In this document: positions 11,562 to 41,165 of the stretch, piece by piece
Layout of the letters: each line of letters begins with the position of its first letter
Position numbering within the stretch: position 1 is the first letter of the stretch
Origin: Escherichia coli
Lineage (GTDB): Bacteria; Pseudomonadota; Gammaproteobacteria; Enterobacterales; Enterobacteriaceae
Length of the DNA: 64,000 bases
Direction: 5' to 3' (one strand)
NCBI RefSeq assembly: GCF_024502345.1
Contig: NZ_JALDNN010000001.1
Notes under the pieces: generated by a model
Told to the model about the DNA's origin: nothing
Database searches by the model: none
What the model saw: the letters and a program-made list of their open reading frames with translations, nothing else
Made by a program: the position numbers and the translations under genes

Positions 11562-11834
11562 GTGAGTCGAGCATTGTTCGCCGTAGTATTAGCATTTCCA
11601 TTAATTGCACTGGCTAACCCGCATTATCGTCCGGACGTGGAGGTAAACGTACCGCCAGAAGTGTTCAGTTCAGGCGGGCAATCAGCGCAGCCCTGTACTC
11701 AGTGCTGCGTTTATCAGGATAAAAATTATTCTGAAGGGGCGGTAATTAAAGCCGAAGGAATACTGCTGCAATGCCAGCGGGATGACAAAACCCTTAGCAC
11801 TAATCCGCTGGTCTGGCGGCGCGTAAAGCCATAA
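11562..11834 (+). CDS. ynjH: small secreted protein (DUF1496)
   Basis: 90-aa ORF with GTG start preceded by AAGGAG, an N-terminal signal-like segment and a Cys-rich body. Confidence 0.75.
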   Translation: MSRALFAVVLAFPLIALANPHYRPDVEVNVPPEVFSSGGQSAQPCTQCCVYQDKNYSEGAVIKAEGILLQCQRDDKTLSTNPLVWRRVKP

Positions 11835-12207
11835 ACGCCTCTAATAATGGAATGTCAGCAGGAGCCAGCGGATATTGCAGCGCCTCTTCAGGTGAGCACC
11901 AGACCAGCGCCTGATGTTCATGTGCCTGTAACGTCCCGTGGAAGTCGGGTACGTGCCAGGCATGAAGATGGATAATCCGCCCCGAAACTTCTCGCTGATG
12001 GCTGGCAACATACTCACCCACAGTTGCTTCGATGCCCAGTTCTTCGCGTAACTCACGCACCAGCGCCTGCCGCTGGCTTTCATCCAGCTCGACTTTACCA
12101 CCGGCAAACTCCCATAATCCCGCCTGATCGCTCTGGGCGGGGCGTTGCGCGAGTAAAATTTTGCCATCACGTTCAATGAGGGCGGCAACAACTTCAATCA
12201 TTTTCAT
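11800..12207 (-). CDS. nudG: Nudix hydrolase (CTP / 5-methyl-dCTP pyrophosphohydrolase)
   Basis: 135-aa MKMIEVVAALIERDGKILLAQR...GGKVELDESQRQALVRELREELGIE, the Nudix box. Its 3' end overlaps ynjH convergently. Confidence 0.9.
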   Translation of the reverse strand: MKMIEVVAALIERDGKILLAQRPAQSDQAGLWEFAGGKVELDESQRQALVRELREELGIEATVGEYVASHQREVSGRIIHLHAWHVPDFHGTLQAHEHQALVWCSPEEALQYPLAPADIPLLEAFMALRAARPAD

Positions 12208-12293: not shown

Positions 12294-12914
12294 GTGCTAG
12301 ACCGCCATCTTCATCCCCGGATTAAACCGTTGTTGCATCAGTGCGTGCGGGTTCTTGATAAACCGGGCATTACGCCAGATGGTTTAACATTAGTGGGATT
12401 TGCCATCGGCGTGCTGGCTCTGCCGTTTCTGGCTCTGGGCTGGTATCTGGCGGCGCTAGTCGTCATTTTGTTGAATCGTCTGCTTGATGGTCTGGATGGC
12501 GCACTGGCGCGGCGCAGAGGGCTTACCGACGCGGGCGGATTTCTCGATATTTCTCTCGATTTTCTCTTTTACGCGCTGGTGCCGTTTGGTTTTATTCTTG
12601 CTGCACCGGAGCAAAATGCGCTGGCAGGCGGCTGGCTGCTGTTTGCGTTTATCGGTACGGGCAGCAGTTTTCTCGCTTTTGCTGCGCTGGCGGCGAAACA
12701 TCAGATTGATAATCCCGGTTATGCGCATAAATCGTTTTATTATCTGGGGGGATTAACCGAAGGCACAGAAACGATCTTACTGTTTGTGCTGGGATGTTTA
12801 TTCCCTGCATGGTTTGCGTGGTTTGCGTGGATCTTCGGTGCGTTGTGCTGGATGACGACCTTTACGCGGGTGTGGAGTGGGTATCTGACGCTGAAGTCGT
12901 TCCAGCGTCAGTAA
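12294..12914 (+). CDS. ynjF: CDP-alcohol phosphatidyltransferase family membrane protein
   Basis: 206-aa from the GTG at 12294, 6 nt after AAGGAG; the track start at 12288 abuts the RBS. Contains the DG..AR motif and multiple TM segments. Confidence 0.8.
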   Translation: MLDRHLHPRIKPLLHQCVRVLDKPGITPDGLTLVGFAIGVLALPFLALGWYLAALVVILLNRLLDGLDGALARRRGLTDAGGFLDISLDFLFYALVPFGFILAAPEQNALAGGWLLFAFIGTGSSFLAFAALAAKHQIDNPGYAHKSFYYLGGLTEGTETILLFVLGCLFPAWFAWFAWIFGALCWMTTFTRVWSGYLTLKSFQRQ

Positions 12915-12922
12915 TTGCAATG

Positions 12923-14230
12923 TTATTTGCTGCTGTCCGGGCCGCGTTCACCGGTTGCTACCGGATTTTTGGGATCGCTGCTCCATTCGTACCAGCCGCC
13001 GTCGTAAACGGAGACGTTATTCCAGCCCATTGCTCGTGCGTACATAAAGGTTTCGGACGCGCGCCAGCCGGTGCCGCAGTAGAATGAAACTTGCTGATCT
13101 GGTTTGATATTCCATGCTTTCCACATAGCGGTAATATCATCGGCGCTACGCATGGTGCCATCGGGGTTATGGAAATCTTCCATATGCGTCGAGTCGCTAC
13201 CAGCGTGTCCCCAACGTGCTCCGGCTATTTCACCTTTTGGTTTAATATAACTGTAACCGCTGGTCGTACCGATAAATTCTGGCCACGAACGAATGCTCAC
13301 CAGCGATGCATCCTGGCGATGCAGCAGTCCACGGGCCTGTTCCATATCGAGCATCAACTGCGGTTGCGCCGGGATCTTCACGCCGAAATCCGGTTCCGCT
13401 TTCACTTTCGGTGGCGTTCCGCGCTCAACAGGCAGTCCCGCGTCGGACCAGGTTTGCCAGCCGCCATCCAGCAGGCGCACATCTTTCACGCCAGCATAAA
13501 GCATAATCTGCGCCACACGCGCTGCAGCATATACGTCACGCCCGTACAGAATGACCGTGGTGTCATGGCGAATGCCGTGTTTTGCCAGCATCGCTTTTAG
13601 TTGTTCATCAGAAACTTTGTTCCACAGCGGTTCGCTTTCCACTTCGTTGGTATCGATGTAGTCAGCGCCAGGAATATGGCTGATAAGGTAAAGCTTAGGA
13701 GCGCCCCAGGCCGCTTCAATGACTTTCCAGTCTCCGGCAGGTTTCGCCGTAACCTCTTTACCTTGTTGCAGGTCGTGCAGCCATTGCGGATAAACCAGCT
13801 GCTCAAAGTGCGGCAGTTTTTGTAGACGGGAAGGTTCGCTTAGCGCGTCACTCAGAATGGAGATATGCGTAAAACCTGCTTTTTGCAGTCGCGTTTTGAC
13901 GGCGTCGACATCTTTGCCATTACCGTATAGCGCCACCGGGGCATCGGCTTTCAGGTTATGTTGCTTGATCCACGCGTTTAGCTGTTCGGTGCTCATTTTG
14001 TCAAGCCAGCTAGCAGAGAGGTTTAAGGCGGCAGGTTCATGACCAGAAGGGCCATTTAAGGTTTGTGGCCAGCCGTTATAAAACGCGCTGGGGCGAGTAT
14101 CTATCGCTTTGCCATTTTGTTGTTGAAGCTGGTCAAGTGTAAGAGGCTTCGCCAGTTCAGCGGCCCACGAAGAAGCGCAAGCCAGCCCTAAAGCCATTGC
14201 CAGCGCGGTCATTTGAGAAACACGTTTCAT
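12923..14230 (-). CDS. ynjE: periplasmic sulfurtransferase with three rhodanese domains
   Basis: 435-aa MKRVSQMTALAMALGLACASSWAAE... with a signal peptide and three rhodanese repeats. Confidence 0.9.
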   Translation of the reverse strand: MKRVSQMTALAMALGLACASSWAAELAKPLTLDQLQQQNGKAIDTRPSAFYNGWPQTLNGPSGHEPAALNLSASWLDKMSTEQLNAWIKQHNLKADAPVALYGNGKDVDAVKTRLQKAGFTHISILSDALSEPSRLQKLPHFEQLVYPQWLHDLQQGKEVTAKPAGDWKVIEAAWGAPKLYLISHIPGADYIDTNEVESEPLWNKVSDEQLKAMLAKHGIRHDTTVILYGRDVYAAARVAQIMLYAGVKDVRLLDGGWQTWSDAGLPVERGTPPKVKAEPDFGVKIPAQPQLMLDMEQARGLLHRQDASLVSIRSWPEFIGTTSGYSYIKPKGEIAGARWGHAGSDSTHMEDFHNPDGTMRSADDITAMWKAWNIKPDQQVSFYCGTGWRASETFMYARAMGWNNVSVYDGGWYEWSSDPKNPVATGERGPDSSK

Positions 14231-28680: not shown

Positions 28681-30181
<1,501 letters not shown>

Positions 30182-40072: not shown

Positions 40073-40360
40073 GGATTACATACCTCCCGGTTTTGCCGGG
40101 AGTTACATGACCTGAAATTCTGCATTTCGTTGCTACATTCATTCAAACCACCTGTAACAAAAAGCTGCCTTTGACGAGCTATTGCTATAAATAAGTGATC
40201 TTTTTTCTTTAATTGTTCATTTATTTTAAAATGGTTAAGTTTTGCTAATCATGATGAGCTATTTTTGATAGTTCATCCTGTGGCGTCGCGCTTAAACTTA
40301 TATTGTAAGTGACTTAGATTTAAATGAGATAATAATTTTGTTAACAATATGAGGCGGGAG

Positions 40361-41165
40361 ATGTTTTCTACAAACTTAATACAGAGTAATTATGGTGATT
40401 TAAATATTAAAAGCCTGGCTTTCGAATCTTTTAAAGAAAGGCTTGAGTCTACCATGGCGGCACTCACTTTCTTTATATCAACGGGTCAATGTGACTGCGA
40501 TGAAATAGCAGAGTCGAACTTCAATCGTATGATTGCCTATATGTCTAACATTAACTATGATGCCTCAAAGCCAGGAGCGCCAGCACTTAGTTTTGATACG
40601 TATCTGCAGGACAATGTTAAATATAGAGTGATAATTAATAATCTTTATGGCAGTGAGTTTCGGATAAGAGATGTTAATGAGAATTTTGTTGGGATGGATT
40701 TTACCTGTGAATTCCGACCCGAAAAAATGACGAATTTGATCAATATAAAAAATAGGTTGGTTATTCATTATTTAAGGACTATATACTATGAAAAAAATTA
40801 TATACATCCTGCCGGGAGCATTTTTGCTGCGATTCAAAAAAAATGAGAGTCTCCTAAAGTTTCCTTCGATAATATCAATGCTTAATATCAATCTTCTTTT
40901 TAATCCACTAAATCTTCCGGGAATGGGAAGTGGTGTGCTTGAAGATATTATGAGTATTCCAGATAGTTCACTTAGAAAACGTCTCGGGTATGAGGTTTTA
41001 AGCTTCTCACTACAGGCACATTCATTGAGCCAGGAATGTATTGATAAGTTGGACATTTTTTTCGCTGACGATCTGTTTAAATATGAGTCAGTATGCATCG
41101 CCGCGATGGAACATTTAAAAAGTAAAGCAACGGCCCCTATACAAAACGGACCGTTGCCAGCATAA
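40361..41165 (+). pseudogene. ydjO: AT-rich gene of unknown function, ydjO-like, with a frameshift between two poly-A tracts
   Basis: ORFs 40349-40846 and 40788-41165 overlap in different frames. Removing one A from the A8 run (40836-40843) or the A7 run (40791-40797) gives a single ORF of about 267 aa. Confidence 0.65.

Follow-up and report, generated by a model that had tools for sequence, protein, structure and literature searches.

Introduction

Convergent genes that overlap at their 3' ends are a described class (Rogozin 2002; Palleja 2008, PMC2478687; PMC4161906). Their members lie on opposite strands, share less than 60 nt, are kept in relatives, and originate by movement of a stop codon or by extension of a tail. 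E. coli has 75 convergent overlapping pairs of coding sequences genome-wide (Huvet & Stumpf 2014, PMC4161906), and of its 370 convergent operons, 276 have overlapping 3' ends, with a mean overlap of 286 nt (Conway 2014, PMC4161252). Since 3' overlap is the rule in E. coli, overlap alone is no evidence of regulation. Other described systems share parts of this arrangement. In convergent excludons (PMC4161252, PMC12288877), the transcripts overlap at their 3' ends and a terminator lies inside the transcription unit of the neighbour; the feature that defines the class is mutual exclusion of expression. Bidirectional or collision terminators (Ju 2019), as outlined in a preprint that relates that work (bioRxiv 10.1101/2022.10.23.513370), feature a stem-loop that lacks a canonical U-tract and lies in the 3' region common to both genes. 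Moreover, Rho suppresses antisense read-through on untranslated RNA that follows the stop codon and holds more C than G (Peters 2012; Adams 2021, PMC7815308).

We analysed a 64-kb stretch of E. coli DNA (64,000 nucleotides, hereafter the window), for which an initial annotation had listed four tail-to-tail junctions, ynjH/nudG, ves/cho, ydjO/tcyP and selO/hemP, and had proposed that they leave no room for terminators, force transcription into the partner gene and thereby set the stage for antisense interference. Two of them, ynjH/nudG and ves/cho, fit the class of convergent overlapping genes and differ from it in nothing: the last 35 or 41 nt are shared between opposite strands, the overlaps are kept in relatives, and their origin is accounted for by a stop codon that moved or a tail that was extended. 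Unlike the members of that class, ydjO/tcyP and selO/hemP abut at 3 nt without any overlap and do not belong to it. The four junctions are real, ordinary and already known in E. coli. Indeed, the overlaps are present in every E. coli annotation, convergent transcript overlap has been documented genome-wide, and three of the pairs have already been listed.

Results

Geometry and background frequency of the junctions

The window is collinear with K-12 from ydjE/gdhA to hemP, with aroH just past its end, and the gene names of the initial annotation are therefore right. The region around ynjH/nudG was matched in 5,423 of 5,426 complete E. coli genomes (best identity 99.4%). The spacings that had been reported were confirmed from ORF coordinates, namely 35 nt common to ynjH and nudG, 41 nt common to ves and cho, and 3 nt between the two stop codons at each of the remaining junctions. 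The same overlaps are found in the RefSeq annotation of a near-identical E. coli genome, and all four junctions are present in K-12 coordinates with identical spacings. The features are as follows.

11562-11834, + strand: ynjH CDS, secreted DUF1496 protein, 90 aa (ORF, RefSeq annotation, Pfam)
11800-12207, - strand: nudG CDS, Nudix CTP pyrophosphohydrolase, 135 aa (ORF, annotation, Pfam)
11800-11834, both strands: 35-nt ynjH/nudG CDS overlap (ORF coordinates, comparison of 53 species)
28759-29334, + strand: ves CDS, HutD family, 191 aa (ORF, annotation, Pfam HutD at residues 8-175)
29294-30181, - strand: cho CDS, excinuclease Cho, 295 aa (ORF, annotation, domains of homologues)
29294-29334, both strands: 41-nt ves/cho CDS overlap (ORF coordinates, tail alignment)
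40349-41165, + strand: ydjO, frameshifted, in ORFs 40349-40846 and 40788-41165, the latter retaining the ancestral stop (41163-41165)
41169-42560, - strand: tcyP (ydjN) CDS; its stop starts at 41169, 3 nt from the end of the ydjO stop at 41165
62218-63654, + strand: selO (ydiU); premature stop TAG, 63565-63567; ancestral stop TAA, 63652-63654; Pfam SelO at residues 2-448
63658-63849, - strand: hemP (ydiE) CDS, 63 aa, stop at 63658-63660 (ORF, annotation, Pfam hemP match)

A fifth tail-to-tail junction, ynjF/ynjE, which is the neighbour of nudG, was absent from the first list; its gap measures 8 nt (12915-12922).

Junctions of this kind are common. Among the convergent pairs of the K-12 gene table from b1700 to b1844, a 144-kb stretch, 9 of 23 are tight, that is, overlapping or within 3 nt. 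A local enrichment in the window was considered and rejected, since tight pairs make up 4 of 10 inside it and 5 of 13 in the flanking 70-80 kb of the same table (yeaK/yoaI, 0 nt; yeaL/yeaM, -44; yoaD/yoaE, 3; yebN/rrmA, -4; yebW/pphA, 0). From the 75 convergent overlaps of the genome about one would be expected per 64 kb, and two were observed. Overlap length is equally ordinary. In the antisense phase shared by both overlaps, measured on the window's own 37 long ORFs, a frame that runs on by chance reaches its first stop at a median of 59 nt (interquartile range 26-125), and 35 and 41 nt are thus what chance run-on gives.

At ves/cho, tail alignment showed that the shared stretch encodes the variable C-terminal tails of both proteins; the Cho homologues carry precomputed Cho_C and UvrC_M domains. 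Among other genera, the two genes share 41 nt in C. freundii, but E. hormaechei has an overlap of 23 nt and Kosakonia one of 4 nt; Salmonella is without ves.

Transcription across the junctions

Since the spacer is absent or short (0-3 nt) and an mRNA extends past its own stop, each transcript enters the partner gene. The initial annotation was correct on this point, which is trivial for the two CDS overlaps and with which antisense RNA-seq and ExcludonFinder agree in K-12. The 165 convergent transcript overlaps of ExcludonFinder (2025), each seen in at least 50% of 58 transcriptomes, include nudG-ynjH, cho-ves, ydiE-selO and ynjE-ynjF; ydjO-tcyP is absent from that list (PMC12288877). In the total RNA-seq of Huang et al. 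(PMC7373196, Table S1c), which provides per-gene counts without positions for K-12 in a few growth conditions, the weaker gene of each pair carried more antisense than sense RNA in the wild type (sense/antisense RPM: nudG 9.0/45.4, cho 7.9/19.2, ydjO 1.8/14.7, ydiE 0.5/5.0). The stronger genes had the opposite balance (ynjH 80/2.7, ves 157/4.7, tcyP 351/1.4, selO 29.7/2.4). By arithmetic on these counts, the antisense density on the weaker gene amounts to about 38% of the sense density of the stronger one for nudG, 8% for cho, 7% for ydjO and about 100% for hemP. We infer that these K-12 data apply to the strain of the window.

The claim that no room is left for terminators stood in part. Promoter and terminator scans found no canonical terminator (GC hairpin followed by a T-tract) at any of the four junctions, and none lies in the spacers of 0-3 nt. 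As a general statement the claim is wrong, because terminators can sit inside the partner ORF: termination signals of both tcyP and hemP lie within their partners. In the Term-seq tables (PMC7815308), neither the ves/cho junction nor any of ynjH, nudG, ynjE and ynjF has a 3' end listed, and the supplementary text of the SMRT-Cappable-seq study has no entry for the genes of the nudG/ynjH region. The RNA that would be made by read-through has a C/G ratio of 1.1-1.6 in 9 of 10 downstream regions, which suits Rho. Among the four junctions, a bicyclomycin-sensitive region has been published only for the hemP strand inside selO (PMC7815308); the other three junctions are without a reported region, possibly owing to low expression.

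The ynjH/nudG overlap

The conserved domains of the two proteins reach almost to the junction. Pfam DUF1496 covers residues 33-89 of the 90 of YnjH, and Pfam NUDIX residues 4-125 of the 135 of NudG; judging from these domain ends, the functional cores abut. A scan for NudG with one genome per species returned 80 loci, and ynjH was adjacent and convergent to nudG in 78 of the 80 species. Every Enterobacteriaceae genus sampled (about 60 species; Escherichia, Citrobacter, Salmonella, Kluyvera, Kosakonia, Enterobacter, Buttiauxella, Mangrovibacter and others) has an overlap of 23-44 nt, and no spacer has been inserted. In Serratia, Yersinia and Erwinia, the genes are separated by gaps of 4-100 nt or overlap by 8-12 nt, with 50 nt in Y. 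ruckeri.

The stop of ynjH is fixed relative to nudG, and that of nudG wanders among five positions. Across 53 Enterobacteriaceae species, the variable columns of the overlap are third positions of ynjH codons, which are second positions of nudG codons, and the wobble positions of nudG are invariant within it. Consistent with this, the TNPLVWRRV motif of YnjH is 91-100% conserved, and the tail of NudG beyond PLLEAFM is variable. Because variation is confined to the wobble positions of ynjH, the last ~10 residues of NudG are a passenger that is read on into ynjH, with selection acting on the YnjH frame only. The comparison points to an overlap that would have arisen passively and then been locked in, since any insertion of a spacer would truncate YnjH. 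The case may therefore be of value for teaching, as an overlap kept family-wide with only one of its two frames under selection.

No conserved RNA structure was detected at the nudG/ynjH junction on either strand in the 53 species (structure conservation index <=0.11), and a conserved stem-loop of the collision type was likewise not found at that index. In this respect the junction is unlike the bidirectional terminators outlined in the preprint cited above, as it has no conserved hairpin. The lack of conserved structure fits the high antisense signal over nudG.

A weak sigma-70-like site lies at 12089-12118 on the + strand, in the 5' part of nudG and facing ynjF. An active promoter there would contribute antisense RNA at the beginning of nudG without any read-through from ynjH.

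A hairpin in the ynjF tail

The following features were found at the fifth junction.

12294-12914, + strand: ynjF CDS (ORF, transferred annotation)
12923-14230, - strand: ynjE CDS, stop 8 nt from the ynjF stop (ORF, annotation)
12885-12911: hairpin of 11-12 bp in the last ynjF codons, dG about -18 to -20 kcal/mol (folding)

The hairpin lies 12-38 nt downstream of the ynjE stop and has no U-tract. The junction, which is named as an excludon in the ExcludonFinder list (PMC12288877), is labile: across species the genes overlap by 4 nt, are 6-8 nt apart, or are separated by 21-948 nt with REP-like palindromes. A strong hairpin in the last 15 codons of ynjF was found in all 18 species that lack a spacer (mean -18.9 kcal/mol), and in the 21 species with a spacer it is mostly absent (median -5.5; Mann-Whitney p = 2e-6, with species treated as independent and no phylogenetic correction). 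Two Citrobacter-like genomes have a different hairpin in the same place in the ynjF tail. Among 15 sequences, 98% of the cells of the hairpin pair; its closing pair is A-U, C-G or G-C across sequences (one compensatory pair), and 7 of its 11 pairs never vary, synonymous sites included.

The hairpin may be an ORF-embedded substitute for an intergenic terminator. With its stem-loop that lacks a U-tract, placed where the 3' ends of ynjE and ynjF meet, it resembles the bidirectional terminators of the preprint's outline, as does a hairpin of the Salmonella selO-hemP spacer described below. A hairpin within a coding sequence that appears exactly where the spacer is missing is also an example of value for teaching.

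A tcyP terminator inside ydjO

One further feature lies at the ydjO/tcyP junction.

41117-41158, - strand: intrinsic terminator of tcyP, inside the last ~15 codons of ydjO (folding, Term-seq)

It consists of the hairpin GGCAACGG...CCGTTGCT followed by TTTACTTTTT, a hairpin with a U-tract. The canonical terminator scan misses it, since the loop exceeds the length limit of the scan, and folding reveals it. In Term-seq, tcyP has its primary 3' end at K-12 1812373(+), 48 nt beyond its stop codon (PMC7815308, supplementary file 1), and the sequence at that end in K-12 is that of the embedded terminator of the window. A hairpin, a U-tract and a mapped 3' end inside the partner ORF come together for tcyP only. 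By arithmetic, the obligatory overlap of 48 nt at the read density of tcyP yields about 12 of the 14.7 antisense RPM on ydjO.

ydjO itself is frameshifted by one extra A near 40836. A 201-nt segment of it is 100% identical in other E. coli strains, and in the one checked ydjO is annotated as a pseudogene. About 21% of complete E. coli genomes do not match the segment at all, and neither Salmonella nor Siccibacter has the gene. ydjO looks like a decaying accessory gene, yet its 3' end holds the terminator of tcyP. In Salmonella and Siccibacter, a spacer of ~100 nt after tcyP contains a canonical bidirectional terminator (A-tract, GC hairpin, T-tract), the sequence of which differs from that of the E. 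coli terminator embedded in ydjO.

L087 2893-2993 and L088 2893-2982 (Salmonella/Siccibacter): bidirectional terminator 3' of tcyP

The selO/hemP junction

The initial annotation had called selO a relic. This description did not hold, as the gene is not decayed: a single nonsense change, T>A at 63566, creates the premature TAG, which removes the last 29 codons and leaves 449 of 478 intact. Over 63440-63700, the closest of the complete E. coli genomes in the collection reaches 99.2% identity and none is a perfect match, and for this reason the nonsense allele looks private to the strain or lineage.

selO and hemP are convergent and tight wherever they were sampled. The gap measures 3 nt in E. 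coli and 6 nt in Kosakonia; Salmonella and C. rodentium have 34-36 nt. A region of Rho termination that is sensitive to bicyclomycin has been reported on the hemP strand at K-12 1790016, where it lies antisense to selO and ~211 nt beyond the stop codon of hemP (Rho score 3.2, p = 7.6e-5; PMC7815308). The 34-nt spacer of Salmonella (L089 2644-2677) contains an 8-bp hairpin, GCCAGCAG...CTGCTGGC, without a T-tract on either strand.

Discussion

Our results make it likely that these are ordinary compact junctions, and that the antisense RNA over the weaker partner is mainly a by-product of their geometry. Conserved protein cores would stand back to back essentially without a spacer, and a frame that lacks a stop at the end of its core would run on in the antisense strand of the neighbour until it meets a chance stop, which would give a short CDS overlap. 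The mRNA, extending past its own stop, would then enter the partner gene as antisense RNA. Its end would be set in different ways: for tcyP, by the intrinsic terminator in the last codons of the partner; for hemP, by Rho acting on untranslated C-rich antisense RNA; for ynjE/ynjF, by a hairpin without a U-tract, of the bidirectional-terminator type. The transcripts of ynjH, nudG, ves, cho and selO probably also end by Rho on such RNA, so that Rho termination would extend beyond hemP to the other junctions. The antisense signals on nudG, cho, ydjO and hemP might thus mainly reflect geometry, and the overlaps presumably have no regulatory function.

An unlikely alternative is that the junctions are functional convergent excludons, in which loss of the spacer was selected and the stronger, condition-induced gene represses its neighbour (ynjH acting on nudG, ves on cho, tcyP on ydjO and hemP on selO) through collision of RNA polymerases, cleavage of the sense-antisense duplex by RNase III, or both. 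The presence of three of the four pairs and of ynjE-ynjF in the E. coli excludome list speaks for it, as does the excess of antisense over sense RNA on each weaker partner in K-12; moreover, the class as a whole has been reported to show higher synteny and less co-expression (mutually exclusive) in single cells (PMC12288877). The label as applied to these pairs denotes transcript overlap alone, however, and in bulk K-12 RNA-seq they display asymmetric levels only. The dsRNA captured with p19 divides the junctions. At ydiE/ydiU it reaches 1,000-2,200 RPM against <60 for the neighbours, an enrichment so strong that sense-antisense pairing must occur there; it is moderate at cho/ves, and no enrichment was reported at nudG/ynjH or ydjN/ydjO (PMC7373196). 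Huang et al. also found that 3' (convergent) overlaps yield far less captured dsRNA than 5' overlaps (PMC7373196). The sense RNA of nudG and cho was not raised in the RNase III mutants rnc-14 and rnc-38 (PMC7373196), and for that reason interference between the partners is no more than a possibility, and weak at best.

Conservation bears on the same alternative from both sides. The nudG/ynjH overlap is kept across the Enterobacteriaceae, and this spacer-free arrangement, set against the labile ynjE/ynjF junction, could reflect selection on the arrangement itself. On the other hand, the length of the overlaps drifts (23-44 nt at nudG/ynjH, 4-41 nt at ves/cho), the substitution pattern is fully accounted for by protein-level selection on YnjH alone, and no conserved RNA structure marks the nudG/ynjH junction. 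Nor are the partners constant: ydjO is a pseudogene here, is unmatched in about a fifth of complete E. coli genomes and does not occur in Salmonella or Siccibacter, and Salmonella lacks ves as well. tcyP, for its part, terminates efficiently at its embedded terminator. If interference were true, expression of ves and ynjH would dampen cho, which encodes an SOS excinuclease, and nudG, whose product sanitises nucleotides, and stress responses would be linked to mutation avoidance; the present findings give no support for such a link.

A related and still more doubtful proposal is that, where convergent genes have lost their spacer, selection places the missing 3'-end signals of the RNA in the codons for the partner's C-terminus, and that, at junctions free of such signals, a stress-induced partner silences a neighbour in DNA repair or nucleotide sanitation. 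Pointers to tails shaped by RNA structure may be seen in the ynjF hairpin of the spacer-less species and in the tcyP terminator within ydjO. The signal-less junctions would be ynjH acting on nudG, ves acting on cho, and hemP and selO acting on each other, and cho and nudG would be silenced by read-through.

Compared with the geometric by-product that we favour, it is quite improbable that ynjH reads through nudG in antisense into ynjF, so that ynjH and ynjF are co-transcribed as a noncontiguous operon. The two genes share a strand, with nudG between them; ynjH is followed by neither a terminator nor a conserved hairpin; its read-through RNA is richest in C only in a window at +217 nt; and the antisense density over nudG is a sizeable part of the sense density of ynjH, as given above. 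A ynjF promoter inside nudG fits the counts equally well, however, and the promoter-like site at 12089-12118 (+) is a candidate; per-gene counts do not distinguish the two sources. In addition, the read density of ynjF is ~10% of that of ynjH, the noncontiguous operons that ExcludonFinder reports for E. coli number only three, none of them ynjH-ynjF (PMC12288877), and the SMRT-Cappable-seq supplementary text has no entry for ynjH, nudG or ynjF.

An annotation artefact, with one gene of each pair unreal or its end miscalled, is hardly credible and was rejected: many long overlaps in databases are misannotations (PMC2478687) and ydjO is a pseudogene in the window, but the stop codons are unambiguous, overlaps that are convergent and <60 nt belong to a class accepted as real in a published overlap study, ynjH, nudG, ves, selO and hemP have significant Pfam domains and Cho homologues carry Cho_C and UvrC_M, both nudG and ynjH are conserved in nearly all species scanned, and the ribosome-profiling tracks of these overlapping genes are a published example (PMC5753223).

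A minor observation concerns an espL1/arpB-like ORF elsewhere in the window (48736-50370, - strand). Its product has 544 aa, compared with 632 aa in the close relative NZ_LR882990; the ORF is probably truncated, like arpB in K-12.
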